A stretch of 15,280 nt of DNA, taken from the IMG/VR virus record IMGVR_UViG_3300035670_002020. One strand, given 5' to 3'. Under the pieces are notes generated by a model, which saw nothing but the letters and a program-made list of their open reading frames with translations, was not told where the DNA came from and made no database searches. This document shows, in pieces, positions 1 through 15,280 of the stretch. Origin of the DNA: a virus. How positions within the stretch are numbered: position 1 is the stretch's first letter; each line of letters begins with the position of its first letter. The position numbers and the translations under genes were made by a program.

Positions 1-127
1 AATGTTGTGGCATATCTTGGTTAGCAACAATCTTTACAGTTTTCTTTTTGCCGTCAAACAATTCTGCAATTACAACAAAGCCTGTAAATAGTTTTCCGTC
101 TTCGTGAGCTGTATTTACAATTCTTAC
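1..127. repeat. Terminal overlap copy 1, identical to 15154-15280 (circular-assembly overlap)
   Basis: Base-by-base comparison shows 1-127 equals 15154-15280 with no mismatch. The repeat lies inside an ORF that reads in frame through the junction. Confidence 0.95.
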
Positions 128-190
128 TAGCTCACTAGCCATTACATCAGGTAGTTCTATTGTTTGTTTTTTTGCTTTAGGTTTACTCAT
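1..190 (-). CDS. Hypothetical protein, N-terminal part of a 98-aa ORF spanning the circular junction (continues at 15153..15047)
   Basis: ATG at 190..188 overlaps the endolysin stop (ATGA). The frame is open to nt 1 and, after circularisation, continues in frame to TGA at 15049..15047 (297 nt). Product: MSKPKAKKQTIELPDV...EEDDEDFYDPEWFDGQ. Confidence 0.6.
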   Translation of the reverse strand, partial: MSKPKAKKQTIELPDVMASELVRIVNTAHEDGKLFTGFVVIAELFDGKKKTVKIVANQDMPQH

Positions 191-594
191 ATTCCAAATG
201 CCTTTCCGTTAAGGTCGCCTGCCTGTGTAAAGGATATATGCAAATGTGATACGTGAGGGTTAGACCCTTTGTAGACACGCCAAGCCCAATTTTGTCGTGG
301 TGAGGCTATTCGGTGTTGGTGAATAATGTAACTAAGTCTTTTGTCGCCTTTGAGTGCAATTGTCTTAATTTGCTCAGCAAGTAGCCAAGACTCTTTACTA
401 GATCCTTTAACAAGATCTGCGTCAATATCTATAGCACGAACCCACCCATTCTTATCTGGGTTGTGGTCTGATTTACGTGCGTTGTGTGAAGTGTCGCCTA
501 TCCAGCCGTCCGAGCGTTTATCGCGCTTAGGATACTTGGCGTTTATTTCAGAGCGTAATTGCTCAGCTGCTTTACTTAACCTTGGTTTTGGCAT
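187..594 (-). CDS. Putative endolysin, zinc peptidoglycan peptidase of the LAS/M15-like type
   Basis: 135 aa with SDGWIGDTSHNARKSDHNPD...AIDID...NPHVSHLHIS. This gives an H/D...HxH metal-ligand pattern like VanY/M15-type peptidases and actinophage lysin domains. It sits at the end of the tail module, where lysis genes normally lie. Confidence 0.6.
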   Translation of the reverse strand: MPKPRLSKAAEQLRSEINAKYPKRDKRSDGWIGDTSHNARKSDHNPDKNGWVRAIDIDADLVKGSSKESWLLAEQIKTIALKGDKRLSYIIHQHRIASPRQNWAWRVYKGSNPHVSHLHISFTQAGDLNGKAFGI

Positions 595-742
595 TAGGGT
601 TCATAGCTCCCATTGAAGCAGCTACGACAGCACCTAATACAGCTCTGTAATCAAGGGCAAAGTCTGTTGCTTGCCAAGCTGCTAGGAAAGCAATTGCAGC
701 TAAAGAAAATTGTTTATGGTTAAAGGATTGAAGCAAGTTCAT
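572..742 (-). CDS. Small hydrophobic protein (56 aa), possible holin; below the track cutoff
   Basis: Hand translation gives MNLLQSFNHKQFSLAAIAFLAAWQATDFALDYRAVLGAVVAASMGAMNPNAKTKVK. It fills the otherwise non-coding 595-719 gap immediately upstream of the endolysin. The hydrophobic stretches are short (12-14 aa), the start is uncertain, and it overlaps both neighbours by 23 nt. Confidence 0.3.
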   Translation of the reverse strand: MNLLQSFNHKQFSLAAIAFLAAWQATDFALDYRAVLGAVVAASMGAMNPNAKTKVK

Positions 743-944
743 CTTTTGTAAGTCCTGCTATTTCTGCTAACTTTTTGATAGCAGATTCTCTGGCTTCTTG
801 TTTGGCTTTATACTCGGCTTCAACTAATTGAAATGCGACATTGTCGGCTTCGCGTTGTGCAATAAATTCTGCTTTAGAATCGCCAGTCAATTCAATAACT
901 TTTTCGCCAACACCAATAAATATTTTTTCAGTTGCCATTGTCAT
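720..944 (-). CDS. Hypothetical small helical protein downstream of the tail fibre
   Basis: The track gives a 74-aa ORF. The second ATG at 938 is the better start, since TAGGAG lies 8 nt upstream. The product is charged and coiled-coil-like (AEYKAKQEARESAIKKLAE), with no recognisable family. Confidence 0.5.
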   Translation of the reverse strand: MTMATEKIFIGVGEKVIELTGDSKAEFIAQREADNVAFQLVEAEYKAKQEARESAIKKLAEIAGLTKDELASIL

Positions 945-949
945 ATCTC

Positions 950-1564
950 CTATTGGTTATATCCAAAAACTTGAATTGTGCCTGAAATATTTCCACCACT
1001 TACGGGAAAAAATCTTGCTTGGTCATAAGAAGTTGTCACTGTCATAGCACCACCACCATTCATATATCCATAATCATCTCTTGAATGCACCCAAGTTATT
1101 GCTGTATTTCTAACAGCAAAAGGGGAATACAAATCTATTGATGTATTAAAACCTGCATTTCCAATAATAAAAGTTGAAGAACTAGCACCACTATTTCCCT
1201 GACTAATTGTTCCTGCAAGATAAGTTGCATATTGTAAATTCCAACGATAATTTCCACCAGTTGAATTGAACGAACCACCAGTTCCAAGTCTCATACCTAA
1301 ATCACCTGAACCAGCAGTTCCTTTATAGATAATTTTGTAATTTTCATAAGTTGATGAAAAAGTTGCAGCAGGTAAATCTTGACTGGCTACTCCACTAAAA
1401 CTAGTTGTATTCAGTAAAACCATTCCAGCTTTTTTAGTACCAAGAGCTGTGTTCATAGCTGTATCTATGTCTTGACCAAGCGTGGCAATAGCCGTAGCGC
1501 CGTCTTTAACAAGGTCTGTGCTTTGAGGAATATCAAAGCCATAATTGGTCGTAGTAGTTGCCAT
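950..1564 (-). CDS. Tail fibre / receptor-binding protein
   Basis: 204 aa, rich in Gly/Ser/Thr/Asn and beta-type sequence. The N-terminus NYGFDIPQSTDLVKDGATAIATLGQDID resembles the conserved N-terminal motif of actinophage minor tail/fibre proteins (from memory). It is the last gene of the tail module. Confidence 0.6.
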   Translation of the reverse strand: MATTTTNYGFDIPQSTDLVKDGATAIATLGQDIDTAMNTALGTKKAGMVLLNTTSFSGVASQDLPAATFSSTYENYKIIYKGTAGSGDLGMRLGTGGSFNSTGGNYRWNLQYATYLAGTISQGNSGASSSTFIIGNAGFNTSIDLYSPFAVRNTAITWVHSRDDYGYMNGGGAMTVTTSYDQARFFPVSGGNISGTIQVFGYNQ

Positions 1565-1584
1565 TGTTCTAGTTTATCCTTTTC

Positions 1585-2814: not shown

Positions 2815-2818
2815 AGGT

Positions 2819-4093
2819 TTATCTAAAGCCGAAGTTGAAAGGTTTTATACCTGTTGTTTTAAGTGCTGTGTTTTGCACTTTAGTAATTGTTCTAGCTGTG
2901 CCTTGTGGGTCTATTGCACCTCTGACGTTGTTGTTAATTACAACTGTTGGCTTTTGTGTGTTAATTCCTACCAAGCCTTGTACTTTGCCTGATAGTGGGG
3001 CGTCTGGGGCAAATTGACCTGTTGCGCTTGCAAATTGTCCAATAAGTGAATTATCAAAGGCTTGCTTAAAATCTCTAAACTTTTGTACAGCTGAGTCAAT
3101 CTTTGCAAATAAACTATCTAAACCATTCACCATTGCTGTTAATAAGTTAATAAATCTTACAAAGCCTGATTCTGAACCTGTGGAAGAATCAAATTGTCCG
3201 GCTAAAGTTCCAAGACCTGAACCAAGGTCACGTAAAGCTGTGCCGAGATTATAACCGGCGTTTTCAGCGTTGTTTGTCTTTTCCTCAAACATTCCAAGGC
3301 TTGGGACAACTGCTTTCTTTTTACCTGTTAAGCCGTCTACGATTCCTTGTAATGCTGGGGCAAGTATGTCTGTTGCAAACTTTGCAAATCGTTCTAACAA
3401 TGGTAGTAGTGCTTGACCTAAACTTTCTTTGGCTTCATCTATTGCTATCTTAAATCTTGCAAGGCGACCAGCAAAAGTATTAGCAGCTGCGTCAGCTTGT
3501 CCCTCAAAAGTTTCAGATAAAGCAATAACGGCTTTATCAAAGTCCTTAGTTTTAACAATATTTTCATCAAGAGGCACACCGATACGCTTTAATGCACCAA
3601 GGTTGCCGTCATAGGCTTTACCTAATGCTTCTGTAACTGTGGCTAAATCTTTACCTGTACCAGCTGCAATATTTAATGCAAGTTGTTGTAGTTTTTGTGC
3701 TTTAGTAACGTCTTGTGTTGATCTAACAAGTCTGTCAAGGCTTGGACGTAATTGGTCGTCTGCTACACCTGTAGCGCGTGCTGTTTTGTCAATGTAATCT
3801 TCTGTGGCTTTAACTTGGGCGTCTGTAGCTTTTGTAACGTTTTTAAGTGTTTGTGCTAAAGATATTTGGGCTTTCTCATCTTCAATAGCTGCTTTAACGG
3901 CGTCTACACCGATTTTGATAGCTGCAACGCCAGCAGCTGCACCAAGAGCTGCAAAAGCAACAGCACCTTTTTTAAGTGCGCTACCTAACTTATCTGAAAA
4001 TGTACGTGTTTCTTTATCGGCTTTATCTAGTCCGTCTATGAATTGTTTAGTGTCAGCAAGTAACGCTAGTTTAAGCGTCCTAATGTCAGCCAT
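2819..4093 (-). CDS. Tape measure protein (about 424 aa)
   Basis: Ala/Leu/Lys-rich helical protein with a hydrophobic segment (GAVAFAALGAAAGVAAIKIG), located after the chaperones and before the distal tail genes. I prefer ATG at 4093 (TAATG overlap with the upstream stop) over the track's TTG at 4111. Confidence 0.75.
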   Translation of the reverse strand: MADIRTLKLALLADTKQFIDGLDKADKETRTFSDKLGSALKKGAVAFAALGAAAGVAAIKIGVDAVKAAIEDEKAQISLAQTLKNVTKATDAQVKATEDYIDKTARATGVADDQLRPSLDRLVRSTQDVTKAQKLQQLALNIAAGTGKDLATVTEALGKAYDGNLGALKRIGVPLDENIVKTKDFDKAVIALSETFEGQADAAANTFAGRLARFKIAIDEAKESLGQALLPLLERFAKFATDILAPALQGIVDGLTGKKKAVVPSLGMFEEKTNNAENAGYNLGTALRDLGSGLGTLAGQFDSSTGSESGFVRFINLLTAMVNGLDSLFAKIDSAVQKFRDFKQAFDNSLIGQFASATGQFAPDAPLSGKVQGLVGINTQKPTVVINNNVRGAIDPQGTARTITKVQNTALKTTGIKPFNFGFR

Positions 4094-4560
4094 TATAAAC
4101 CTGCTTTCCAAGCGTCTCTAATACGTTCATAACCTTTAAGCCATTCCTGAGCAATCGTTGGTTGAAATCTTGACATTGCACGATACAACCACCAACCCTC
4201 TTTACCACCCTTGCCAGAGCGTCTAGGGAACTGTTTGTATTGCTTTGATCCAAATTCATTACCCATTATCACATAACCAGCACTAAAAGCACTAGAGCCA
4301 ACTTTACGATTACCACCAATACTAAAACTTGGTGCTTTATCTGATTTAGATATTTTAATTGAGTCAGCAACGGCTTGTGCTTGTTTAACATTGTAAGGCG
4401 CATTACTAGCTGCACCTTTAGCGTAGTTAGCACCACGTTCTGCTAAAGCACTAGCAATTTGTTTCATATCTTTTTTAGCTATATCGTCCATTTTACTAAA
4501 TGCACGAAGAAGCCCACGATAGTCTTTATCAACTTTAACTAATTGAATTGCTTTAGCCAT
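4093..4560 (-). CDS. HK97 gp10-like tail-component / neck protein
   Basis: 155 aa. The motif GYVIMGNEFGSKQYKQFPRRSG...WWLYRA resembles the YA..vEfGt....PFl.pA core of the HK97 gp10 family (PF04883, from memory). The position between GT and the tape measure is atypical. Confidence 0.45.
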   Translation of the reverse strand: MAKAIQLVKVDKDYRGLLRAFSKMDDIAKKDMKQIASALAERGANYAKGAASNAPYNVKQAQAVADSIKISKSDKAPSFSIGGNRKVGSSAFSAGYVIMGNEFGSKQYKQFPRRSGKGGKEGWWLYRAMSRFQPTIAQEWLKGYERIRDAWKAGL

Positions 4561-4962
4561 TATTGCGCTCGTTCAATACGTCTATAGCTGTAGCCCATAT
4601 TTCGGGTTCGGCATTGAGCCAATAATCGGGTGTTATCCCAGTTGCTATTGCTAGTTCTACTGCTGTTCGCCCGATACTTCGGGCTTGGTAAAATTTGCTG
4701 TCTCAAAATCAGAAGCTGTAATATCGGTGACTTTACTTTTCCAAGTGTCAAAGTTCTCAACTTTTTTGGTAATGCGTTGTTGCATTTTGTGAGCCAAGAA
4801 TAGAAGAAGTGTGTTACTTGGTGTGCTTTCTTCAATAAGTATTTTAACAATTGACTTGCCGTTATATAGTTCTTTTTCTGCAAGTGATAGTTCAATTGGT
4901 CTAGTCCATTCATCAAACTTTTCACCTGTTTCTAATTCCCACGTTAATTTTAGTTTAAGCAT
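4553..4962 (-). CDS. Tail assembly chaperone GT-like product via programmed -1 frameshift (about 136 aa)
   Basis: From AAATTTT (4696..4690) the -1 frame stays open for 45 more codons to TAA at 4555..4553. The extension reads ...YQARSIGRTAVELAIATGITPDYWLNAEPEIWATAIDVLNERNNG and ends with an 8-nt overlap on the next ATG. This removes the 97-nt gap that would otherwise be non-coding. Confidence 0.65.
4657..4962 (-). CDS. Tail assembly chaperone (G-like, zero-frame product)
   Basis: 101-aa acidic protein directly after the major tail protein. The SD is AGGGG 7 nt before the ATG. A slippery heptamer lies near its 3' end. Confidence 0.7.
   Translation of the reverse strand: MLKLKLTWELETGEKFDEWTRPIELSLAEKELYNGKSIVKILIEESTPSNTLLLFLAHKMQQRITKKVENFDTWKSKVTDITASDFETANFTKPEVSGEQQ
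4669..4684 (-). promoter_or_regulatory. Frameshift-stimulating stem-loop (GCCCGA-AGTA-TCGGGC)
   Basis: Perfect 6-bp GC-rich stem with a 4-nt loop, starting 5 nt downstream of the slippery heptamer. This is the canonical spacing. Confidence 0.5.
4690..4696 (-). promoter_or_regulatory. -1 ribosomal frameshift slippery heptamer A_AAT_TTT
   Basis: The minus strand reads GCA AAT TTT in the G frame, so the X_XXY_YYZ phasing is correct. Confidence 0.65.
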
Positions 4963-4990
4963 TTGTGTGCCCCTGTTCTGTTTGTTGTTG

Positions 4991-5398
4991 TTACGCTGTT
5001 AGGTCTTCGGTTGGAATACCTACAACTTGTAGTGATACTGAACAAGTTTGTGCGTCTGCACCTGAAGCAGTAACCGGTGGGTATTGTGGTAATACTGTAC
5101 CAGTTAAAGTTACACCTGTTGTCAATGTCAAAACAAAAGCCAGAGCTGTGTCTGGTGCTGACTCGGTTGCGTCCCAAAGTGCTTTATATAAGCTGTCTGG
5201 GCTTTTACCTGCGTCATTCAAGAAATTAATATCTAGAGTGACGTTTGAGTCAATGTATTTGTATGCTTTTCCTGCAAGAGTGTCAAAAGTTAAACGTTCG
5301 GTATCAAAGTTGATAGCAGAATCTAAAATTTGTTCACTATAGTTTTTTGTAGCAATAGTTAAAGTTAAACTACGACCACTTAAAATAGTTGTTGCCAT
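4991..5398 (-). CDS. Major tail (tube) protein
   Basis: 135 aa, beta-rich, with a strong SD (GAAAGGT). It lies immediately upstream of the G/GT chaperone pair and after the connector genes. Confidence 0.6.
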   Translation of the reverse strand: MATTILSGRSLTLTIATKNYSEQILDSAINFDTERLTFDTLAGKAYKYIDSNVTLDINFLNDAGKSPDSLYKALWDATESAPDTALAFVLTLTTGVTLTGTVLPQYPPVTASGADAQTCSVSLQVVGIPTEDLTA

Positions 5399-5410
5399 TT
5401 CGTACCTTTC

Positions 5411-5782
5411 TTAGCCTGTGTAGGCTGTTTGTAGTTGTATTTCAGCAGTTAATAGATCAGTACTATTAGTGCTTCTAATTCTTGGGCTACTTACAGACAA
5501 TATTATCCAAGTTGTCGGCAAGAGTCCTAGAATTGTTTCTATATCGTCTTCCAAGTTTGTTAGCGCGCTTGGGTTAGAATACGTTGTACTAACAACTTCT
5601 AATGTTAGTCTTACGTAATAGTTTTTGCTATTGCCTATAACCATTGGTTCAAGGTATGGGTCACTAGCTAAAATTAGGCAGGCTGGGGGAATAATAATTT
5701 CTGGTACGTGATCATAAACAGAATACTTTGTATTTGAGGTGATTGCTGTTTTAAGTCCTGAACGTAGCGTACTTAACGGCAT
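5411..5782 (-). CDS. Tail terminator / head-tail joining protein (DUF3168-like)
   Basis: 123 aa. The pattern LKTAI...VYDHVPE...PPACLILAS...YVRLTLEVV resembles DUF3168-type tail terminators (from memory). The position just before the major tail protein fits. Confidence 0.45.
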   Translation of the reverse strand: MPLSTLRSGLKTAITSNTKYSVYDHVPEIIIPPACLILASDPYLEPMVIGNSKNYYVRLTLEVVSTTYSNPSALTNLEDDIETILGLLPTTWIILSVSSPRIRSTNSTDLLTAEIQLQTAYTG

Positions 5783-5784
5783 AA

Positions 5785-6363
5785 TTAACCTACTTGACTA
5801 TTAGAGTCAATATATTTACTAATTAAACCTGTAACTTTGTACAAAAGGGTTCTGCCCATACGATATGGGGCTGGTGTGTAATCAAGGGCTTGTTGTGTGC
5901 CACCTGCAGCTAGTCTTGATTGGAATACGTCTACAGCAATTTGTAGCACAGCTTCTTCAACAGCTGCTACGCCGTCATATTGTGATAAATCGTTTTCAGC
6001 TGCAATACCATTAGGTATAACGTTGTAATATTCGGTGTGAATTGGTGCGCCTGTTGTTGTAATTCTAAAAGTGTATGGATCAACTATATCTGAGATTGTT
6101 TTATTGCCGTTTACGTGTGCTTCAACACCTGATATGGCTATTGTTTGTCCGTCATAAAATTGGTGTGGTCTTGTTGTGTGTATTGTTGTTGTGGTTGCTG
6201 TTTCTGAATAGTGTTTATCTATTCCAACTTTCCATTGAATAAGAAAGTCACCTATTGCGTCTTCTGCTGTGTTAATTATTGCGTTTAGTGCTGTGTCATC
6301 ATAGAGAGTATTTGGAACGCCAAGTACAGCTCTTAACTGAGCTGCTGTTACTAATTCTGGCAT
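5785..6363 (-). CDS. Head-tail adaptor (gp6-like connector) with an internal insertion
   Basis: The N-terminus AQLRAVLGV...DDTALNAIINTAEDAIGDFL and the C-terminus AVLQIAVDVFQSR...YRMGRTL match the gp6/Phage_connect_1 pattern. An extra beta-rich segment of about 80 aa lies between them. The SD GAGAGG is 7 nt upstream. Confidence 0.6.
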   Translation of the reverse strand: MPELVTAAQLRAVLGVPNTLYDDTALNAIINTAEDAIGDFLIQWKVGIDKHYSETATTTTIHTTRPHQFYDGQTIAISGVEAHVNGNKTISDIVDPYTFRITTTGAPIHTEYYNVIPNGIAAENDLSQYDGVAAVEEAVLQIAVDVFQSRLAAGGTQQALDYTPAPYRMGRTLLYKVTGLISKYIDSNSQVG

Positions 6364-9075: not shown

Positions 9076-9116
9076 AACTTCTAATTCTTTACCAAATCGT
9101 TATAATAGTCAAGCAC

Positions 9117-10553
9117 CTAAGCAACTACAATGTCTTGGTTTGACCCACGTATGCCGTACTGTTCAGCCTTAAATATTGCTAAGACCATTGAAATAGCAGC
9201 TGTTGATTGTTGTCGGCGCATAATATACCAAGCCCCAGACTCGTTTGCTTTTTTAATACAAGAATTAACGCTAGCTGTTAAATCAGGTTGATTACTATGA
9301 GCAAGTCTACCACCACTCATAGCCGATAATGTTGCGTCGCAGGCTTGGTAGTAGTCACTTCCTTTAATAACTTCTGCGTTTATGCCTGCCTGTCTTAGTT
9401 TGGCAACAACTGAGTCACCACTAAACCTATTAGCAACAATGGCTTCTGCGTTGTAATGTTTAGCCCACTCTGAAACACGTCCAGCAATAATTAAATCATC
9501 TATTGCGTATTCGGATTCAACACATTCCATTAGTCCTACAGCTATTGAGCCGTCATCAATTATTTGTGTTCCTGTTAATGCCCAACTTGTGCGCTCTGGT
9601 GATATTTCTAAACCTAACCAAGTTGATCTGTCTGGTTTAAGTTCAAGTATTGGTTGCATACAAGAGTTCCAAGAGCCAAGTGCCCAAGGGCTGTTCATTG
9701 TTGTTACCCACATACTTAAACACTCGGTCATAAAGACTTCTGTTGGGTCTGACATTCTGGCTTTGATTGCTGATATGTCAATAGTGCGACCTAGTGCAGG
9801 GTTTGCTTCTTTCCAGCCCTCTATGTCGTTTAGTTTTCTGTGTGGTGCAGCTGACCATTCCATAAAGTTGATGTCATCATCTGTATCTTTTTCAATTTTG
9901 TCTAATGCACGTTGTCTTAGGTTGTTTAGTACAACGCTTTGATGATCACCTGCGTTACTGATAAAGAACCCTTGAGAATTTGGGCGTGCTTGCATTGTGT
10001 ATGCCAAAGCACTAAAGGCGTCAAAGGTTTTATGTTGTCTTACTTCGTCTAAATAAACTGTGTCTGATGATAGTCCTCTAGCTGCGCCTGCTGTTGGTGC
10101 AATAATTTTGTATCTGCAACCTGAGCCTTTGATTTCTATTTCTTCTCGACCATTAGCTCTTGTTATGTGTTTAACTTTACGTCTAAGCCAATCAAAGTTA
10201 TCTACAACTTCTATAACTTGTCTAAATGTTTCTAAAGATAAGTCTCTGTTTTGTGCTGTTGCTACTTGTAGTTTCTCGTCCCATAGGTAAAGCCCTGCAA
10301 GGATACGCATACGCAGTAAATGTGTTTTGCCATTTTGTCTAGCTGCAATAATCAGGTTAGTTTTGTGTTGAAATGAGCCGTCTTCTTTTATTTTGCTTGT
10401 TTCAAGTATGACGTTTTCTTGCCAAGGCAGTAAAGGCATACCAATCTGTTTGGCAAACTCAACAACTTCGTGACCTTTAGTTTGGCTTACTAATGGTGTG
10501 GTCTGTAGTCTCGGTTCTGAGTTGCCGTAATGCTTCAAGTGGGTCTTCACCAA
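9117..10553 (-). CDS. Terminase large subunit
   Basis: Contains LLPWQ, Walker A-like AARQNGKTHLL, Walker B-like VYLDEV and a C-terminal nuclease-size domain. The start is uncertain (TTG 10553, GTG 10550 or TTG 10538) and overlaps the 3' end of the small terminase gene. Confidence 0.85.
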   Translation of the reverse strand: MVKTHLKHYGNSEPRLQTTPLVSQTKGHEVVEFAKQIGMPLLPWQENVILETSKIKEDGSFQHKTNLIIAARQNGKTHLLRMRILAGLYLWDEKLQVATAQNRDLSLETFRQVIEVVDNFDWLRRKVKHITRANGREEIEIKGSGCRYKIIAPTAGAARGLSSDTVYLDEVRQHKTFDAFSALAYTMQARPNSQGFFISNAGDHQSVVLNNLRQRALDKIEKDTDDDINFMEWSAAPHRKLNDIEGWKEANPALGRTIDISAIKARMSDPTEVFMTECLSMWVTTMNSPWALGSWNSCMQPILELKPDRSTWLGLEISPERTSWALTGTQIIDDGSIAVGLMECVESEYAIDDLIIAGRVSEWAKHYNAEAIVANRFSGDSVVAKLRQAGINAEVIKGSDYYQACDATLSAMSGGRLAHSNQPDLTASVNSCIKKANESGAWYIMRRQQSTAAISMVLAIFKAEQYGIRGSNQDIVVA

Positions 10554-10800
10554 CTTCTAATTCAGGTTTCTCTTTACGACCAAACAAGCTAAGCCCATAC
10601 TTATCTAAGATTTGTTGTAACTGTCCCATATACTTAACTTCTTCAATAGGTTTCAGTGTTCCACCGTCAAGAACACCAGCTAAAGTAAACGCCATAGCCA
10701 TACCAGCTGCGTCTAAGTCTGAGATAATTCCCTGACGTAATGCTTCGTCGTGTGCACGATCTAATGCTGGCAGAATTCTGTGCTTTTCTTCTTTAATCAT
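10477..10800 (-). CDS. Putative terminase small subunit (107 aa)
   Basis: Synteny: it sits between the HNH and the large terminase genes. I prefer ATG at 10800 (ATGATTAA overlap with the HNH stop, AAGGGG upstream). The track's 138-aa form extends into the HNH gene and looks like read-back. Confidence 0.5.
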   Translation of the reverse strand: MIKEEKHRILPALDRAHDEALRQGIISDLDAAGMAMAFTLAGVLDGGTLKPIEEVKYMGQLQQILDKYGLSLFGRKEKPELEVGEDPLEALRQLRTETTDHTISKPN

Positions 10801-11167
10801 TACGATTAACCCCTTTAGGTAATTGGAACGGGCTTTTAAGCTCTTTCGGAGAGAAAGAAGTGGCAGGGGTCGGTGGTGTCTTATCGTGCTCAAAAAATCG
10901 TATCATTTCTTTTTCTTTTCGCTTTCTTGCTCGTTTACGATTGTATTCTTGCTCGGTCTTTGATCCTTTAGAGTAGTTGCAATGTTTGCAAGCAGTAACG
11001 AGATTACTGAGTTCATCTGTGCCCCCTTTATGGATGGGTGTGAGATGATCGACTGTATTAGCTGTAGTAATTCCACAGTAGTAGCAGGTGTGGTTGTCTC
11101 GTTTAAGTACGAATGTTCTGAGTTTTCGCCAACGTGTTGATGATCCATTACGTTTAATTATATCCAT
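10793..11167 (-). CDS. HNH endonuclease (terminase-associated)
   Basis: Motifs CYYCG...VDHLTPIHKGGTDELSNLVTACKHCNYSKG. It lies directly upstream of the terminase genes, as in HK97-like cos phages. Confidence 0.85.
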   Translation of the reverse strand: MDIIKRNGSSTRWRKLRTFVLKRDNHTCYYCGITTANTVDHLTPIHKGGTDELSNLVTACKHCNYSKGSKTEQEYNRKRARKRKEKEMIRFFEHDKTPPTPATSFSPKELKSPFQLPKGVNRND

Positions 11168-11176
11168 ATGTTAATT

Positions 11177-11182
11177 ATTATA
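11177..11182 (-). promoter_or_regulatory. Candidate -10 box (TATAAT) for a leaderless or short-leader HNH/late transcript
   Basis: Perfect TATAAT 9 nt upstream of the HNH ATG, which has no SD. No convincing -35. Confidence 0.3.
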
Positions 11183-11313
11183 TATGTTAAGAACCTTTGA
11201 GTGTTGAAGTACAGAGAATGGCTTGAATGTAAACCACTCTCATAGTTGAACCCCTGAGGTTTCGTACTATCGAATGGAAGCCTTATTGGTTATTCGGCTT
11301 AGTCTTGCCATAT

Positions 11314-11365
11314 CATCACAAACTTATGTAGCTACTAGAAGACTCGTTAATAGCAGTTTGTGATG
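11314..11365. repeat. 11-bp perfect inverted repeat (CATCACAAACT / AGTTTGTGATG) with a 30-nt spacer
   Basis: Read directly: 11314-11324 is the reverse complement of 11355-11365. The spacer contains the 8-bp palindrome GTAGCTAC (11328-11335). Confidence 0.8.
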
Positions 11366-11505
11366 TCGTAACTTCTCGTATTGTTACACGCTACGTTGAT
11401 TAGGCATAGATAAGTAACGCCCTCTGACGGCGATTAAATTGGCTATCAACCAACCCTAGACTTTAGGTTTAGACTTGGCACTAGCTACCAAGTATGTAAC
11501 TTATA

Positions 11506-11754
11506 TCAGTAATCGTTGTAGTTGTCTATCCTTGGGTCTTGTATCCAATCATTTATTATCATTAAGTTTTCTTTACGTGCTAAATCACGATCTACTTTAT
11601 CTTGGTATTCTTCTAACTTCTTTTTATCGTCAAGCATTTTTTGGTAACACTTAGCGTCACGGCAGGGCACTTCTCTGCTGTTATCGTAATCGTAGTGATA
11701 ATGCAAGTATATTACTTTACTCATTGTCGCAATCGTGTTGTAATTCTTTGGCAA
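11506..11754 (-). CDS. Hypothetical protein (72-82 aa)
   Basis: ORF with a TTG at 11754 or an ATG at 11724 (MSKVIYLHYHYDYDNSREVPCRDAKCYQKM...). Charged and helical, with no recognisable family. It is the last gene before the ORF-free region. Confidence 0.5.
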   Translation of the reverse strand: MPKNYNTIATMSKVIYLHYHYDYDNSREVPCRDAKCYQKMLDDKKKLEEYQDKVDRDLARKENLMIINDWIQDPRIDNYNDY

Positions 11755-11794
11755 TCATTTTATGACACCCCTTACACCAAATATATGTAGCCAT
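11717..11794 (-). CDS. Candidate micro-ORF, 25 aa, Cys-rich (MATYIWCKGCHKMIAKELQHDCDNE)
   Basis: Its ATG overlaps the upstream stop as TAATG. CxxC plus H and C could form a small zinc knuckle. It is very short and speculative. Confidence 0.25.
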   Translation of the reverse strand: MATYIWCKGCHKMIAKELQHDCDNE

Positions 11795-11880
11795 TATTTG
11801 AGATATAACTTAATTGCTATAGATAGTGACGCAACACTTACAAACGCCCCAGCAAACATACCTATTATAAATTGTTGCAT
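11794..11880 (-). CDS. Candidate micro-ORF, 28 aa, hydrophobic (MQQFIIGMFAGAFVSVASLSIAIKLYLK)
   Basis: Its ATG overlaps the methyltransferase stop as TAATG, and its own stop overlaps the next ATG as TAATG. It contains a single hydrophobic helix. Confidence 0.35.
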   Translation of the reverse strand: MQQFIIGMFAGAFVSVASLSIAIKLYLK

Positions 11881-12380
11881 TATTTAGCTCTTTCCATAGA
11901 ATTTGTACCAACAAACAAATCTAATAATACATCATCTTTTTCATAACCTAACAAACTTAATACCCATTTGTTAAATTCATCTGGCTTAGCACCTTGTAAA
12001 CCTGTTTTGCGTGTTGGTGAGGTCATTAGCCAATCTTTTACCATTGGTTTACGACTACCTAATTTTTTGTTTGTCTTGAATAACACACACTCGTACATAT
12101 ATTGAGTCATTACAGGACGTATTTGTGCATAAGGTTTTACCCAAACAGCCATACGTGTTTTGTCAGGGCATTGTGGTAATAACCAACTTATATCTCGTGG
12201 GTTACAACTTAAAGCCCAACCATCATAAGCGTTATCCATCATAGTAACCAAATCTATGTGGGTCATTCTGTCGTCCCATATATAGGCTTCTTCGTGGTGT
12301 TTTTGATACATTTTTTTACCCATACCAAAATATGGTGGGTCAGCATAAGCAAATATCATTTGATCCTTTGCATACACCAT
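11880..12380 (-). CDS. Compact beta-class (N6-adenine/N4-cytosine type) DNA methyltransferase-like protein
   Basis: ADPPY (motif IV) lies almost at the N-terminus. The C-terminus has GAKPDEF...DDVLLDLFVGTNS, resembling the HPxxKP...vLDPFxGSGTT motif I region. Only 166 aa, or 159 aa from ATG 12359, which has an AAGGA SD. Confidence 0.6.
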   Translation of the reverse strand: MVYAKDQMIFAYADPPYFGMGKKMYQKHHEEAYIWDDRMTHIDLVTMMDNAYDGWALSCNPRDISWLLPQCPDKTRMAVWVKPYAQIRPVMTQYMYECVLFKTNKKLGSRKPMVKDWLMTSPTRKTGLQGAKPDEFNKWVLSLLGYEKDDVLLDLFVGTNSMERAK

Positions 12381-12425
12381 TTGCAGTAACTAGCGTTATA
12401 ACACCAACCACCACAGCTAACACAT

Positions 12426-12536
12426 CTACTTATCAAATTTAACATAGTTTTTGACCACCTCAAACAAGTTAGCCAAACCAAACACAGCTAGTATTACACC
12501 TGCAAACAGTAATGCGTCTATGTATCTTTGTTCCAT
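12426..12536 (-). CDS. Candidate micro-ORF, 36 aa, single-pass membrane peptide (MEQRYIDALLFAGVILAVFGLANLFEVVKNYVKFDK)
   Basis: ATG with an AGGGG SD 7 nt upstream and a clear hydrophobic core. Below the track cutoff. Confidence 0.4.
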   Translation of the reverse strand: MEQRYIDALLFAGVILAVFGLANLFEVVKNYVKFDK

Positions 12537-12555
12537 TTGTTGCCCCTGTCTTGAC

Positions 12556-12693
12556 TTAGTGTTTTTTTTCTACTATCTTTCTTGCTTCTTCCATATCATC
12601 TTGATTGTGGAAGTTTGATGATTTGCTGAGTAAGTCTTGTGATATTGAGAGTCGTAAGACTTGCTCTAGACGATATACGTCTTGTGGTTTCAT
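12556..12693 (-). CDS. Hypothetical 45-aa protein (MKPQDVYRLEQVLRLSISQDLL...)
   Basis: Internal ATG of the 104-aa track ORF, preceded by AAAGGGGGG 3 nt upstream. The longer form overlaps the Rpf gene by 92 nt and has an implausible N-terminus. Confidence 0.45.
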   Translation of the reverse strand: MKPQDVYRLEQVLRLSISQDLLSKSSNFHNQDDMEEARKIVEKKH

Positions 12694-12713
12694 TCGCCCC
12701 CCTTTCTTATGTC

Positions 12714-12779
12714 TTATTGTCGCATAAACAACGCTAATAACACCAGAAACACACCAACAAATACGATAATTGTTTCCAT
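12714..12779 (-). CDS. Candidate micro-ORF, 21 aa, hydrophobic (METIIVFVGVFLVLLALFMRQ)
   Basis: Its ATG overlaps the Rpf-gene stop as TAATG. The peptide is almost entirely a transmembrane-like helix. Confidence 0.35.
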   Translation of the reverse strand: METIIVFVGVFLVLLALFMRQ

Positions 12780-13087
12780 TATTTAACCCCCGTAATTTTT
12801 GAGCATTGTGGAAATGCTCGACTAAATCCTTGCTTAGACACAAGCAACTGTGCGCGTTTATATTGTTCACGCACAGAAGCCCGTGCAGGGTCGCCAGACC
12901 CCCCTACCCATTCCCACGATCTGTTATCAAACTGAAACAAGCCCCTATACTTGCCTGTTCGATTTACAGCTTGTGGGTTTAATGACGACTCACAGAACGC
13001 AATTTTCCGGTAACGCTCTGGTAGTAGCTCAACGTCATTAAAATATGGGTCAAGTAGTAATAGTTCTAAAATTGTTCTGTCTTCCAA
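12779..13087 (-). CDS. Stand-alone Rpf-domain (resuscitation-promoting-factor-like) lytic transglycosylase, 102 aa
   Basis: FCESSLNPQAVNRTGKYRGLFQFDNRSWEWVGGSGDPARASVREQYKRAQLLVSKQGFSRAFPQCSKITG aligns motif for motif with the Micrococcus luteus Rpf domain as I recall it ([49 protein letters not shown]...WPLCSQKLG). The catalytic Glu and both cysteines are included. The start is a TTG overlapping the upstream gene by 22 nt. Confidence 0.8.
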   Translation of the reverse strand: MEDRTILELLLLDPYFNDVELLPERYRKIAFCESSLNPQAVNRTGKYRGLFQFDNRSWEWVGGSGDPARASVREQYKRAQLLVSKQGFSRAFPQCSKITGVK

Positions 13088-13812
13088 TCTGCAGCTGCCG
13101 TTTCAGCCTGTTCGTGGCTTGACGGAAGTCTAGAAGCGTTTAACCAAGCACTAAGGTTATCTGCCAATTGTTGCTGTTGATCTAATTGGTTTTTAACGAT
13201 TGTGTATGGTGCGAATTCTAGCTTAGAAAACTCCTGTTCCTTACTTAGGAATTGCAGATATTTCAGTAGTTTCTCTTTATCCCAATCAGTATAGATACGC
13301 TTACAGAGACTATGCAAGAAGTTTATTTGCTTTTCTGTAGCAACTCTATAAGACCCAAAATAGCCCATTTCTAAGCCTTGCCCTTGTCCTGATATAGGCG
13401 CAGGGGTTTCGGGGCTAATTTTGCCCTTATTTTGGCTTAAATCGGTATCTGGTGGGGTCTGCCAAGGGTCGTTTTCTGTGTTCACGTTACGTTGTACTTC
13501 CTCTCTAGAAGCAATGCCTTTAGTAACAGCAATACCAAGAGCTGCAATAGCACGACCCCAAGCACTTGTTTCAAGGGTCATCATTTCAGCACCTTTAGCA
13601 AAGCCTCTAGCTGGTACACGTTCCCAAGCCCAGCCACTTGCGTAAGCCATTTTGTCGCGTTCAGGGTAAGCAAAGGCTTCACCATAAATATAAGTTTCGC
13701 CATTAAACTCAAGTACACCTTTATATTGAAAATGCAAAGTGCCCTCTGGATATTTGTCGTAAAACATTTGTATACGATCTTTAACTTCTATGTAGTTCTT
13801 CAGATAATCCAC
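13066..13812 (-). CDS. Putative DNA-binding recombination/replication protein (tentatively Rad52/Sak-like N-terminal domain)
   Basis: 248 aa, with a GTG start and a TAGGAG SD 8 nt upstream. LETSAWGRAIAALGIAV...IASREEV resembles the E(S/T)xAxxRAxxxxGIG motif of Rad52/Sak-type annealases. The C-terminal ATEKQINFLHSL-type helix is of unknown function. The family assignment is weak. Confidence 0.3.
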   Translation of the reverse strand: MDYLKNYIEVKDRIQMFYDKYPEGTLHFQYKGVLEFNGETYIYGEAFAYPERDKMAYASGWAWERVPARGFAKGAEMMTLETSAWGRAIAALGIAVTKGIASREEVQRNVNTENDPWQTPPDTDLSQNKGKISPETPAPISGQGQGLEMGYFGSYRVATEKQINFLHSLCKRIYTDWDKEKLLKYLQFLSKEQEFSKLEFAPYTIVKNQLDQQQQLADNLSAWLNASRLPSSHEQAETAAADWKTEQF

Positions 13813-13974
13813 TTAATTAACTCCTATAAATAGTCCGTAAAATTCTTGCAATTGTTCCATTTTGTTTATGCAATCACATTTCTCAAATATGCACCTAGTT
13901 CTATGGTAATAATCCATAGTGTGATAAGCGTGCGCTAATAGCTGTGATATTGGGTAAAACTGTTTATCTAGCAA
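13813..13974 (-). CDS. Candidate 53-aa protein, His/Cys-containing (MLDKQFYPISQLLAHAYHTMDYYHRTRCIFEKCDCINKMEQLQEFYGLFIGVN)
   Basis: TTG at 13974 with an AAAGGGG SD 4 nt upstream, or ATG at 13917 giving 34 aa. The stop abuts the GTG of the next gene. Confidence 0.35.
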   Translation of the reverse strand: MLDKQFYPISQLLAHAYHTMDYYHRTRCIFEKCDCINKMEQLQEFYGLFIGVN

Positions 13975-14031
13975 AATGCCCCTTTCGTTAAAGAAAGGTT
14001 AAGGCTTACCTGTGTCAAAACACGGCATTGA

Positions 14032-14040
14032 ATTATAACA
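14032..14040 (-). promoter_or_regulatory. Candidate extended -10 promoter (TGTTATAAT)
   Basis: Perfect TGnTATAAT on the minus strand, 15 nt after the metallophosphoesterase stop, in one of the few intergenic gaps. It is positioned to drive the 53-aa/248-aa/Rpf block. Confidence 0.35.
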
Positions 14041-14054
14041 ATTTGATAACGGCT

Positions 14055-14825
14055 TTAACGCCAAAGTTCGCCCTCAGCTATAAATGAGCCGTCTTTGTTA
14101 AAAGGCACTAGCTCAGGTTTAACTTGTCCGTCTTGCTCGTAAAGTATTCCAAAGCCTGCCTGCCAGTTTGCGTGACCCTCTTTCATATAACGCATACCAG
14201 CACTATTGAGGTCGCACAAGTGTCCTACTTCCATACCCCAAAGTGTTGAAAGATTTCCAGCAAATCCGTGACTCGCAGAGCTAATACCTTGTCTGTGTGT
14301 GTGACCACAAACAACGTTCTTACCTGTTCTTGTAGCTAGTCCTAAAGCTGTTTGTCCTGCGTGATTGTAGAGTCTGCCCTCGTCGCCGTGCCCAAGAATT
14401 ACCCCTTTGGCAACTTCGGTTAATGATCTGTTATATGTAACTTTTATATCTTTATCGTTATAGCCAAGTAGATTTTCTATTTTGATTGCGTCAATAACAC
14501 TAAATGCTGGTGCGTGACGGCTAATGTACTTTTCAATTCGTATCGTGTGATTGCTTCGTTGAATTTGGAAAGGCTTACTGCGTCCAATAGCACTACGGAA
14601 TTCTTTGAGTAAGCCTCTCAAACCTATTATATTCTTTTGTAACGAACCCTCAAACTCTAGGGCTGTGCCACGTGCATAAGTTGATATTGTTTGACAATCA
14701 AGTTCATCACCAACACAAAGTAACTTATCTGGTTTAACGTAGGCTATGTAATCTAAAAGGCTTTCAACGTAAGACTTTTTAATAAAAGGATATTGCAAAT
14801 CTGAAATAACAACGTAACGTTTAAT
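14055..14825 (-). CDS. Calcineurin-like metallophosphoesterase (about 256 aa, apparent ATT start)
   Basis: Motifs in order: VVISDLQ (motif I variant), GDELD, SNHT, GHGDEG, GHTH. Motif I lies upstream of the track's TTG start (14798). The only start-like codon after the in-frame TAA (14831..14829) is ATT at 14825..14823, preceded by AAGAGGT with a 5-nt spacer. Confidence 0.7.
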   Translation of the reverse strand: MKRYVVISDLQYPFIKKSYVESLLDYIAYVKPDKLLCVGDELDCQTISTYARGTALEFEGSLQKNIIGLRGLLKEFRSAIGRSKPFQIQRSNHTIRIEKYISRHAPAFSVIDAIKIENLLGYNDKDIKVTYNRSLTEVAKGVILGHGDEGRLYNHAGQTALGLATRTGKNVVCGHTHRQGISSASHGFAGNLSTLWGMEVGHLCDLNSAGMRYMKEGHANWQAGFGILYEQDGQVKPELVPFNKDGSFIAEGELWR

Positions 14826-14828
14826 ACG

Positions 14829-15050
14829 TTACCTCTTTCGTTTAGGCTTACCTAACTGTGTGTTAATACTATCTATAGTACTACGAATTTTTGTGACCTC
14901 AATCTGTAGGCGTGTCACTTTATCGTTTAATGATGAACCACCATTAGGAAATAATTGGCTTTTCATTTTAGTTATTTCAACTGTTGCTTTTACAACTAAA
15001 ATAAGGACTGTAATAAGTAAACCAATAATGCCTACGAGTTCGTTTATCAT
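14829..15050 (-). CDS. Single-pass membrane protein with a coiled coil and basic C-terminus (73 aa); holin-like or exclusion-like
   Basis: N-terminal LVGIIGLLITVLILVV helix, a heptad-like middle region and a KPKRKR tail. Its ATG overlaps the upstream stop (ATGA). Confidence 0.55.
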   Translation of the reverse strand: MINELVGIIGLLITVLILVVKATVEITKMKSQLFPNGGSSLNDKVTRLQIEVTKIRSTIDSINTQLGKPKRKR

Positions 15051-15280
15051 TGTCCGTCAAACCACTCCGGATCGTAAAAGTCCTCGTCGTCTTCTTCGGG
15101 TGACATTGTGAATTGGTATTTCTCAGCTGCATAGTTGATAATGCCAAATACTGAATGTTGTGGCATATCTTGGTTAGCAACAATCTTTACAGTTTTCTTT
15201 TTGCCGTCAAACAATTCTGCAATTACAACAAAGCCTGTAAATAGTTTTCCGTCTTCGTGAGCTGTATTTACAATTCTTAC
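15047..15280 (-). CDS. Same junction-spanning 98-aa ORF, C-terminal part (5' end runs off the window end; 15154-15280 duplicates 1-127)
   Basis: The open frame enters from the window end. TGA at 15049..15047 overlaps the next ATG (ATGA). It is absent from the ORF track because it has no start within this copy. Confidence 0.6.
   Translation of the reverse strand, partial: VRIVNTAHEDGKLFTGFVVIAELFDGKKKTVKIVANQDMPQHSVFGIINYAAEKYQFTMSPEEDDEDFYDPEWFDGQ
15154..15280. repeat. Terminal overlap copy 2, identical to 1-127
   Basis: Exact 127-nt identity with the window start. 127 is a common maximum k-mer length in de Bruijn assemblers, which emit circular contigs with a k-length overlap. Confidence 0.95.

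Follow-up and report, generated by a model that had tools for sequence, protein, structure and literature searches.

The window, the whole 15,280-nt stretch analysed here, is a genuine and complete tailed-phage genome that is circular in the assembly and carries no conventional replication or lysogeny gene, as had been proposed from the sequence. It is almost certainly a complete cos phage of the small-genome actinophage-like class and forms a new lineage of that already described class of tiny viruses; the small-genome situation itself is known from RRH1, clusters AN and EE, and freshwater "miniphages". Taken as a whole, it is probably a strictly lytic, cos-packaging miniature siphovirus, which may combine the host replisome with a recombination module of its own.

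The genome has a GC content of about 0.40, and all credible ORFs lie on the minus strand. Positions 1-127 are identical to 15154-15280, and the circle therefore measures the 15,153 bp originally given. Among 98 related TerL-bearing IMG/VR contigs the longest reaches 15,329 bp, and across about 100 related metagenomic contigs unit length is the maximum, tandem joins excepted. The window junction (1/15280) is crossed uninterrupted and colinearly by many related contigs, and one contig of 15,079 bp starts at the right physical end and stops no more than 6 nt short of the left. The longer contigs, of 32 kb and 20.6 kb, repeat the unit of about 15 kb head to tail; their joins lie at the cos ends and are no evidence of replicative concatemers.

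The expected cos-type packaging is borne out by the contig termini of relatives, with 29 of 139 mapped ends inside a single 100-bp bin, about 18 left ends sharing one start base and eight right ends sharing one stop base. In minus-strand orientation, the right end closes with ...GACAC (plus 10876) and the left end opens with ACTTCTTTCTC (plus 10861). The 11-14 nt between them are absent from both contig ends and therefore bear the signature of 3' cohesive ends as in Arthrobacter cluster AN, which shows the same layout, with 11-base 3' ends after GACAC (PMC5513430). From this absence and the analogy to cluster AN, we infer a 3' overhang, predicted to consist of an 11-nt core, CGACCCCTGCC, at 10862-10872 and three extra bases (CAC) in the window genome. 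Virions contain a linear DNA unit of about 15.1 kb with short cohesive ends, the terminase genes at its left end and the HNH endonuclease gene, whose 3' tail crosses cos, at its right end; the assembled circle is the cos-joined form.

Pfam and PHROG searches recognised many of the virion genes, and the full head, neck, tail and lysis set on one strand that had been claimed is present (Table 1). Cultured relatives of the 515-aa capsid protein carry the annotation "major capsid and protease fusion protein", and a protease-(scaffold)-capsid fusion is a common feature of the small-genome siphovirus group (PMC7302621). The earlier capsid estimate of T=3/T=4 agrees with a published allometric model, in which T=3 capsids hold genomes of 11.8 kb and T=4 capsids genomes of 18.0 kb on average (PMC7762592). 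The tape measure, put at about 424 aa, has exactly this length. In g18, a programmed -1 frameshift yields a 47-aa extension, the heptamer and the open -1 frame being kept in 21 of 21 distinct relatives. The putative receptor-binding protein g23 displays a median identity of 41% among relatives, nucleotide matches being absent at 1000-1300. Holin-like g25 has two hydrophobic segments, homologues of g26 are confined to actinophages, and in Glutamicibacter phage Montesquieu a g26-like domain forms the N-terminus of the gene directly before the holin. From its sequence features, g01 is possibly an accessory lysis protein.

Table 1. Features of the window, in order of plus-strand position.
Feature	Position	Strand	Basis
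Assembly overlap; circular closure, no physical end	1..127	.	= 15154-15280; relatives continuous through junction
g27, 98 aa, acidic C-terminus	15047..15280 + 1..190 (across assembly junction)	-	ORF calling
g26, probable endolysin catalytic domain	187..594	-	PHROG 32486; zinc-peptidase motif H-x5-D...H-x-H, by eye
g25, holin-like small membrane protein, 56 aa	572..742	-	Sequence; adjoins g26; 93% conserved among relatives
g24, 74 aa, between tail tip and lysis genes	720..944	-	Sequence
g23, hypervariable tail-tip protein, probable receptor-binding protein	950..1564	-	Variability among relatives
g22, tail-tip or distal tail protein, 409 aa	1585..2814	-	Position only; no family match; conserved among relatives
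Tape measure protein, ATG at plus 4093	2819..4093	-	PHROG 991, E 2.7e-12
g20, HK97 gp10-like tail component	4093..4560	-	PF04883, E 1.6e-4 (weak)
Tail assembly chaperone, g18 (4657-4962) with frameshift extension ending at 4553	4553..4962	-	Heptamer A_AAT_TTT (4690-4696)
g17, probable major tail protein	4991..5398	-	Position only (gene order vs phage Swenson); no family match
g16, neck or minor tail protein	5411..5782	-	PHROG 22278, E 2.7e-7
g15, head-tail adaptor	5785..6363	-	PF05135, E 8e-4 (weak)
Fused prohead protease and HK97-fold major capsid protein, 515 aa	6432..7979	-	PF04586 (Peptidase_S78) + PF05065/PF25209; PHROG 2263, E 6e-69
Portal protein	7972..9075	-	PF04860, E 1e-38
TerL (large terminase subunit)	9117..10553	-	PHROG 9, E 2.5e-70
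g11, candidate small terminase, 107 aa from ATG	10477..10800	-	Position only; no family match
HNH endonuclease, last gene of linear map	10793..11167	-	PF01844, E 2.6e-13
cos site	10861..10876	-	Contig-end pile-up; likeness to cluster AN (PMC5513430)
Conserved structured non-coding element, 10 helices; core multi-helix domain 11307-11431	11214..11491	-	Covariation
g09, small conserved protein	11506..11754	-	Sequence; conservation; no family match
g08, accessory DPPY-motif methyltransferase-like gene, variable slot	11880..12380	-	Motif and slot content
g07 (36 aa, hydrophobic) and g06 (start uncertain), small ORFs	12426..12870	-	Sequence; comparison with relatives
g05, free-standing Rpf-type transglycosylase-like protein	12779..13087	-	PF06737, E 2.6e-12
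g04, probable RAD52-superfamily single-strand annealing protein	13066..13812	-	Predicted fold and gene neighbourhood
g03, conserved 53-aa protein	13813..13974	-	Sequence; conservation among relatives
g02, actinophage-type metallophosphoesterase	14055..14798	-	PHROG 221, E 4e-61
g01, 73 aa, N-terminal hydrophobic segment and coiled coil	14829..15050	-	Sequence; conserved among relatives

Searches of both strands with Pfam, PHROGs and NCBIfam revealed no polymerase, primase, helicase, initiator, integrase or repressor; genes for partition or excision are likewise missing from the window, none of its genes is divergently transcribed, and DnaA boxes are neither enriched nor clustered. Sensitive searches thus left the absence of conventional replication and integration genes standing, but three DNA-transaction genes had escaped the original prediction: one for a RAD52-like annealase, one for a metallophosphoesterase and an accessory one resembling methyltransferases. 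The last of these, g08, was found in only two related contigs, has a cultured-phage homologue annotated as DNA methyltransferase and occupies a slot that in other relatives contains a PF00145 C5-methylase. For g27, all 167 homologues fall within the lineage of the window, none with a Pfam domain, and cultured phages gave no match.

The predicted fold and the gene neighbourhood suggest that g04 is in all likelihood an annealase. It matched none of the sequence models of known or curated annealase families; its AlphaFold model shows an N-terminal domain of about 110 aa (pLDDT 90-97, alpha-beta-beta-beta-alpha topology) followed by a helical C-terminal region, and this domain matches the fold of the RAD52-superfamily phage annealases Sak, Sak3 and Erf. 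In the PDB, human RAD52 accounts for all of the best matches (E 2e-4, probability 1.0), together with yeast Mgm101. Annotated BFVD matches comprise ERF, Rad52/59/22 and SAK3 proteins as well as one protein fused to an Exo VIII-type nuclease. Members of the family lie in early regions beside exonuclease, SSB and resolvase genes, as in actinobacterial prophages (YqaJ-type exonuclease) and in Lactobacillus phage Ld17 (SSB and resolvase). In contrast to the G35P/G34.1P recombination module of SPP1, the window carries neither a lambda-Exo/YqaJ-type or RecE-type exonuclease nor an SSB, and its sole nuclease candidate is the metallophosphoesterase g02. This protein matches 1199 phage records over its full length, nearly all of them actinophages, where the family has no assigned function; it is a possible nuclease partner of g04.

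The only large intergenic gap of the genome is occupied by a structured element that is very probably functional. It keeps 84-87% nucleotide identity while a conserved ORF is absent, and its 63 pairs are formed in 99% of cells. Compensatory double changes affect 15 pairs, whereas shuffles gave 6.4 +/- 1.5 and slid controls 1-4, and a divergent relative retains 35 of 36 core pairs with eight double changes. The folded strand is the gene-sense strand, as seen from G-U cells (310 sense, 5 antisense) and MFE z-scores (-3.2 sense, -1.5 antisense). No Rfam match was obtained, and the element contains neither an AT-rich stretch nor iterons, which argues against a classical origin. Structured sense-strand RNAs replace a dedicated initiator protein in ColE1 (the RNA II primer) and a dedicated antiterminator protein in HK022 (put). 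The element resembles them in being structured on the sense strand, lies at the early/late boundary and belongs to a genome with neither an initiator nor an antiterminator protein, but it shows no similarity to either in sequence or Rfam, and its architecture, in which hairpins flank a multi-helix core of about 125 nt, is unlike that of either.

After injection, the cohesive ends would anneal, and the host would provide ligase, RNA polymerase and the entire replisome. The phage would contribute only a recombination module, the annealase g04 with g02 as possible nuclease partner, promoting recombination-dependent (sigma-type) concatemer synthesis like the annealase G35P in phage SPP1, and the HNH-terminase machinery would cut the concatemers at cos. 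The structured element, which separates the early genes from the HNH-cos-terminase-structural block, would be the prime candidate for the cis-acting control that is otherwise missing, acting either on read-through into the late genes or on replication priming. This specific replication scheme is tentative, and we hold it at somewhat under even chances; cluster AN lacks any annealase, and therefore the g04/g02 module may be dispensable for replication.

The main competitor is phage-initiated replication as in lambda or P2, with a small lineage-specific protein (g27, g09, g03, g06 or g24) serving as an unrecognised initiator or helicase loader at the structured intergenic region. Several conserved ORFans without detectable family, the acidic aromatic C-terminal tail of g27, of a type used for docking on host replication proteins, and the conserved, lineage-specific element would suit such a system; the candidates, however, all measure 53-104 aa, below the size of known initiators, the element has no iterons, AT-rich stretch or DnaA-box cluster, and its wobble pattern points to a single-stranded fold and not a duplex binding site. 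We consider this unlikely. A temperate or episomal life through unrecognised maintenance functions is very unlikely, even though the related small Gordonia phages of cluster CW are temperate (bioRxiv 10.1101/2022.02.05.479200) and many small ORFs are unannotated, given the missing integrase, repressor, partition, excision and divergently transcribed genes and the absence of prophage copies from 185,579 GTDB species genomes.

That the window might be a helper-dependent satellite or a gene-transfer-agent-like element is less probable still. A size of about 15 kb without replication genes recalls RcGTA clusters and capsid-forming satellites, but the genome has a terminase, portal, capsid, complete tail, lysis genes and cos site of its own, it lacks an integrase, the same species genomes hold no relatives of it, and cultured relatives built on the same plan are lytic and autonomous (PMC5513430, PMC7302621). 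Least probable of all, and close to negligible, is the view that the window forms just a piece or a chimera of a larger genome, with its replication genes elsewhere: the 127-nt repeat by itself could be an assembly artefact and a few related contigs reach 20-32 kb, but the length ceiling of the 98 contigs, the colinear crossing of the junction, the end-to-end contig and the unit composition of the longer ones all speak against it.

The lineage is common in metagenomes and distantly akin to cluster AN, Penoan, cluster EE and RRH1. Members of Arthrobacter cluster AN (genus Decurrovirus; for example Decurro, Maggie and Swenson) have a similar size (15.3-15.7 kb) and share the order of small ORFs, terminase, portal, fused protease-capsid, short tail module and lysis genes, then a few small genes with HNH last beside the right end; they are lytic and, like the window, lack DNA polymerase, helicase, primase and integrase (PMC5513430). 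Detectable similarity, however, is limited to HNH, TerL (21% identity), portal (28%) and protease-capsid (about 36%, protease part). Cluster AN has a GC content of 60% (window 40%), a tape measure of 665 aa, four DNA-binding proteins and one leftward-transcribed gene, whereas the window has all genes on one strand and no recognisable helix-turn-helix protein; the AN annotation lists no annealase, phosphoesterase, Rpf-like protein or structured element like those of the window. Other siphoviruses with unusually small genomes are Curtobacterium phage Penoan (15,303 bp), those of Microbacterium cluster EE (17.0-17.5 kb) and Rhodococcus phage RRH1 (14,270 bp, given as about 14.3 kb in the original prediction; PMC5513430). 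They likewise carry an HNH nuclease and no replication genes (PMC7302621), but protein similarity to the window is low and nucleotide similarity is lacking, their hosts are high-GC soil actinobacteria, and cluster EE carries transcriptional regulators including lsr2.

In all, 109 actinophages below 20 kb have been catalogued (bioRxiv 10.1101/2022.02.05.479200). Freshwater "miniphages", complete metagenome-assembled tailed phages with a distinct peak at about 15 kb and a minimum of 13.5 kb, are in part predicted to be actinophages (Kavagutti et al. 2019, PMC6802176); the lineage of the window is likewise metagenome-only and widespread, but those calls were based on whiB, which the window genome lacks. 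The initial guess at an actinophage is in keeping with the closest cultured relatives of the capsid (211 records) and the phosphoesterase matches, nearly all from actinophages, and with the free-standing Rpf-type transglycosylase. A freshwater actinobacterium of low GC content is the most likely host. Against this stand the GC content of 40%, far under the values for hosts of cultured actinophages, and two related contigs binned in MAGs labelled Methylopumilus and Psychromonas, which are probably binning errors. In this miniature phage, the recombinase and the conserved folded non-coding element provide leads to its copying or timing.

Positions 1-127 of the window are repeated exactly at 15154-15280, which leaves a unique circle of 15,153 bp, just as the original prediction had calculated, with a GC content of about 40% throughout and 27 defined ORFs (g01-g27), the long ones all being located on the minus strand. 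Our comparison with related metagenomic contigs revealed that the genome is complete, unit-length and of the cos type, a linear molecule of about 15.1 kb. Many of those contigs run colinearly through the assembly junction of the window, which is therefore a point of circular permutation and not a physical end, and one relative of 15,079 bp covers the linear unit from its right end up to a point within 6 nt of the left. A search of IMG/VR yielded 98 relatives of the large terminase (TerL), forming two groups with 94-99% and about 73% amino-acid identity, and the longest contig among them measures 15,329 bp. The possibility that the window is a fragment of a larger genome was also checked against the few contigs of 20-32 kb carrying related genes, all of which proved to be head-to-tail repeats of the unit with junctions at a cos end. 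In two JGI contigs of 32,058 bp (L101) and 20,593 bp (L102), the junctions coincide precisely with one of the cos ends (rc 4300 or rc 4278), while the other end is truncated by 240-440 nt; these contigs are thus not concatemers and not larger genomes, but tandem assembly joins of linear units, uninformative on replication. Parts of another relative of 14,886 bp (IMGVR_UViG_3300020042_005403) align to the window in opposite orientations, a fold-back suggestive of a chimera or hairpin formed during assembly.

The physical ends became visible when the true ends of related contigs were mapped onto the window, where left and right ends pile up sharply at one site: 29 of the 139 mapped ends fall into the 100-bp bin 10800-10899, in which about one would be expected. 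Some 18 independent contigs share their first base and start with A[CT][TG]T[CT]TTTCTC..., directly after the conserved GC-rich CGACCCCTGC[CT]; on the other side, ...GACAC is the precise end point of eight IMG/VR contigs, and two JGI contigs end one base earlier. The 11 nt between these ends (14 nt in the window, due to a CAC insertion) are absent from both sets of termini, the pattern expected of a 3' cohesive overhang removed by end-polishing, and from this we infer the 3' polarity. A few contigs read through the cos site, as is expected of circular or concatemeric forms. For phages of the Arthrobacter cluster AN, 11-base 3' ends have been described (PMC5513430). Swenson, a member of that cluster, displays the same end layout as the window, namely ...GGACAC, an 11-nt C-rich overhang and then a pyrimidine-rich left end.

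The gene order around the cos site fits this picture. The HNH endonuclease gene adjoins the terminase genes across cos, with g11, the candidate small terminase (TerS), and TerL immediately downstream, as in HK97-type HNH-assisted cos packaging. On the linear map, TerS and TerL are located at the left, and the HNH gene closes the map at the right, its 3' tail reaching across cos, so that the short cohesive ends, of presumed 3' polarity, and the right-end HNH gene both resemble cluster AN. Because the HNH ORF spans the cleavage site, its final ~25 codons are found at the left end once the genome is linear, and the ORF is intact only while the genome is circular or concatemeric.

Features of the window, with positions in plus-strand numbering, and the basis of their assignment
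Feature	Position	Strand	Basis
Tail-tip gene g23	950-1564	minus	hypervariable among relatives
Tail chaperone g18, -1 frameshift	heptamer A_AAT_TTT 4690-4696; 47-aa extension 4553-4696	minus	canonical slippery heptamer
Tape measure		minus	PHROG 991
HK97 gp10-like protein		minus	weak match
Head-tail connector		minus	weak match
Protease-capsid fusion, 515 aa, one ORF		minus	S78 protease PF04586 and HK97-type capsid PF05065/PF25209; PHROG 2263 over full length, E 6e-69
Portal		minus	PF04860, E 1e-38
Large terminase		minus	PHROG 9, E 2.5e-70
HNH endonuclease	10793-11167	minus	Pfam match
cos site	10861-10876	minus	contig-end pile-ups
Structured element	11214-11491; core 11307-11431	minus	covariation
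Possible hydrophobic mini-ORF, 28 aa	11793-11879	minus	
Methyltransferase-like g08	11880-12380	minus	DPPY motif
Rpf-type transglycosylase-like g05, 102 aa	12779-13087	minus	PF06737
Annealase-like g04, 248 aa	13066-13812	minus	predicted structure
Metallophosphoesterase g02	14055-14798	minus	PHROG 221, E 4e-61

Assignment of the virion and packaging genes by Pfam and PHROGs bore out the claim of a full virion and lysis gene set on one strand. Prohead protease and HK97-type capsid protein are encoded by a single gene, as in small-genome actinophages. The tail chaperone gene g18 carries a -1 frameshift site, and both its heptamer and the open -1 frame are preserved in 21 of 21 distinct relatives. 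A larger ORF overlapping g18 in frame +1 ("g19", 4560-4925) was considered as the chaperone extension and rejected, since the conserved extension lies in the -1 frame after the heptamer; this overlapping ORF looks spurious. Among the lysis genes, homologues of g26 are found in actinophages only and, in Glutamicibacter phage Montesquieu, form the N-terminus of the gene directly before the holin, while g25 encodes a small protein with two hydrophobic segments. The tail-tip gene g23 is hypervariable among relatives that are otherwise 80-90% identical: the median protein identity is 41%, and its middle part (1000-1300) shows no nucleotide match among them. It probably encodes a receptor-binding protein under diversifying exchange.

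The dimensions estimated for the virion also appear reasonable. The tape measure, predicted at about 424 aa, has exactly 424 aa counted from the ATG, corresponding to a tail of ~65-70 nm where ~65 nm had been proposed, and for 15,153 bp a packing density of 0.5 bp per cubic nm gives an internal diameter of 38.7 nm, in line with the proposed ~39 nm. A T=3 or T=4 capsid agrees with a published allometric model: 15 kb falls between its mean genome sizes of 11.8 kb for T=3 and 18.0 kb for T=4, and for Rhodococcus phage RRH1 the model predicts T=3 (PMC7762592).

The claim that replication and lysogeny genes are missing stood for conventional genes, but three DNA-related genes (g02, g04, and g08) were found. 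Searches of Pfam, PHROGs, and NCBIfam on either strand revealed no polymerase, primase, helicase, initiator, integrase, repressor, or partition protein; an excisionase was not found in these databases either, leaving the window without the genes typical of temperate phages. NCBIfam gave no credible match for ten non-structural proteins. The TerL protein has no relative among 185,579 GTDB species-representative genomes, which means that these hold neither prophage copies nor a link to a host. DnaA boxes are not enriched in the window, tRNA and tmRNA genes are absent from it, and scans for promoter and terminator consensus sequences gave counts no higher than in shuffles.

Among the three DNA-related genes, g02 encodes a metallophosphoesterase with 1199 full-length homologues, almost all of them in actinophages. 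As only positions 120-362 of the PHROG profile are matched, an N-terminal truncation was considered and rejected, because mycobacteriophage homologues have the same length of ~243 aa and match end to end. Gene g08 is otherwise present in only two related contigs, and in other relatives (L102-L104, around 11454-12086) its place is taken by a PF00145 C5-cytosine methylase. This position is a swappable slot, with g08 as its accessory anti-restriction cassette. Between g08 and g09, a gap of 125 nt contains a possible mini-ORF (MQQFIIGMFAGAFVSVASLSIAIKLYLK). The early genes further include g05, a free-standing protein with an Rpf-type motif, which actinophages usually carry within the tape measure protein. 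The other small proteins have 53-104 aa and belong to no family detected here, and g27 is confined to the lineage of the window.

The assignment of g04 is based on its predicted fold and on gene neighborhoods. Its N-terminal ~110 aa form a widespread domain with 1973 cluster representatives, yet g04 matched nothing in Pfam, including the curated annealase families Rad52_Rad22, Erf, and Sak, or in NCBIfam, and 50 relatives gave no relevant Pfam match. The related PHROGs 23738 and 11717 are labelled "unknown function", an hhalign comparison of the g04 family with Sak of lactococcal phage ul36 was negative, and sequence searches with g02, g04, and g26 against PDB sequences gave no match. The AlphaFold model built from a diverse alignment, however, reached a pLDDT of 90-97 with an alpha-beta-beta-beta-alpha topology, thus including the beta-beta-beta-alpha core of the RAD52-type fold. 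In a Foldseek comparison with the PDB, all top matches were human RAD52 (E 2e-4, probability 1.0), accompanied by yeast Mgm101; in BFVD, uncharacterised family members were followed by annotated ERF, Rad52/59/22, and SAK3 annealases and by a fusion to an Exo VIII-type nuclease. Judging from this model and from the gene neighborhoods of its relatives, g04 very probably encodes a single-strand annealing protein of the RAD52 superfamily.

The genomic neighborhoods of g04 relatives show the associations known from such proteins. In Brevibacterium and Arthrobacter prophages, the homologue lies directly downstream of a YqaJ-type exonuclease gene in the same orientation, and in Lactobacillus phage Ld17 it is found in the early region with SSB and resolvase nearby. 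In the window, the sole nuclease candidate is the phosphoesterase g02, separated from g04 only by the 53-aa g03. By analogy with the exonuclease gene upstream of the prophage homologues, g02 is possibly the nuclease partner of g04.

The sole large intergenic gap of the window (11168-11505) lies between g09 and the HNH gene. With 84-87% identity, its conservation matches that of coding DNA; it contains no conserved ORF and harbors the structured element. RNAalifold and pair counting on 26 distinct relatives revealed 10 helices comprising 63 local pairs, and 99% of the cells are paired. Compensatory double changes were observed at 15 pairs, compared to 6.4 +/- 1.5 in column shuffles (0 of 500 reached 15) and 1-4 in slid controls, and the one-sided changes are switches of A-U or G-C to and from G-U. 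All strand measures point to the gene-sense strand: 310 G-U cells are counted in this orientation and 5 in antisense, the paired share is 99% in sense and only 83% in antisense reading, and folding is better than in shuffles for the sense (z = -3.2), but not for the antisense strand (z = -1.5). Even a divergent member of the lineage (L123, DATBNI010000159.1), whose annealase is only 39% identical, keeps the central multi-helix domain (L123:2632-2772; nhmmer E 1e-14), preserving 35 of 36 core pairs with eight double compensatory changes relative to the window. An IMG/VR motif scan detected the element only on contigs of up to 15.3 kb belonging to the lineage of the window.

Rfam 15 showed no match for the whole window at E<=1, and only chance-level matches for the element alone at E<=10; the element is unclassified and could be new in its own right. 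Its neighborhood might call to mind an intron- or IscB/HEARO-like unit formed together with the HNH gene, but this was rejected, as besides the lack of an Rfam match the HNH protein is short (124 aa) and has no RuvC domain, and the genes on either side do not represent two parts of a split gene. The element sits exactly at the border between the early non-structural genes and the HNH-cos-terminase-structural block. Because of this position, and because AT-richness and iterons are absent, we tentatively favor a role in transcriptional read-through or antitermination over one as primer or origin, which we consider quite unlikely. It also seems doubtful, although conceivable, that the element represents a new class of cis-acting RNA of ~280 nt on the sense strand, replacing the missing protein regulators or initiators. 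Such an RNA would either time entry into the HNH-cos-terminase-structural block, acting as a protein-independent antiterminator or read-through switch, or recruit the host replisome as a ColE1-like primer or R-loop origin.

A possible life cycle can be drawn from these features. The cohesive ends would anneal after injection, with ligase, RNA polymerase, and replisome provided by the host; the annealase g04, possibly with g02 as nuclease, would promote recombination-dependent synthesis of concatemers, which HNH protein and terminase would cut at cos, and the structured element would give cis-acting control. The annealase G35P acts in the theta-to-sigma switch of phage SPP1, and the role proposed for g04 would be parallel to it. 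As the gene pool is actinophage-like and the GC content is 40%, a freshwater actinobacterium of low GC content is the probable host; searches for CRISPR, tRNA, or prophage links revealed none, and the names attached to cluster members did not indicate a host. The sole host-like labels come from two short contigs of the lineage, P0098 (NCBI MBW0156042.1) and L123, binned in MAGs named "Candidatus Methylopumilus sp." and "Psychromonas sp.", probably as a result of mis-binning.

The observation made for the window is confirmed and its interpretation supported, but the phenomenon itself is already described: tiny siphoviruses devoid of replication genes were reported with RRH1 in 2012 and with cluster AN in 2017. 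At 15,153 bp, the window is a complete dsDNA siphovirus genome below 20 kb, as are those of small-genome actinophages. Using tblastn, the capsid fusion matched 211 cultured phages of Microbacterium, Arthrobacter, Gordonia, Curtobacterium, and Rhodococcus, and the top matches among those listed have genomes of 15.3-15.7 kb with the annotation "major capsid and protease fusion protein". Swenson and the Curtobacterium phage Penoan reveal the same architecture as the window and no annotated replication genes. Membership in a PhagesDB cluster requires ~35% shared phams. Only 4 of the 27 window proteins are detectably similar to AN (Swenson) or Penoan proteins, with 21-36% identity, so the window does not share enough genes with any existing small-actinophage cluster (AN, EE, CW; RRH1), and 7.9 kb of it had no nucleotide match among 50,697 phage records. 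The window thus represents a distinct lineage of this kind, outside the existing clusters. A total of 109 actinophages of 14,270-19,679 bp have been catalogued (bioRxiv 10.1101/2022.02.05.479200). In freshwater metagenomes, a "miniphage" peak at ~15 kb with 155 complete genomes below 15 kb was reported, formed by complete tailed-phage genomes of ~13.5-15 kb (PMC6802176); the size of the window agrees with this peak.

To the question of how tiny siphoviruses without replication genes replicate and time their expression, the lineage of the window, which appears to be abundant in metagenomes, adds three handles lacking or unreported in cultured examples: a cos site mapped exactly, at base resolution, a RAD52-type annealase beside an actinophage phosphoesterase, and a structured element supported by covariation. 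If neither the element nor the annealase were necessary, the genome would still serve as a clearly bounded reference for miniphages of a widespread group. If one of them is necessary for replication or late expression, this would reveal a minimal host-dependence strategy of a tailed phage and would also add a new RNA family. Should the element indeed be a new cis-acting RNA, it would, together with the annealase, explain how a tailed phage without replication genes is copied.
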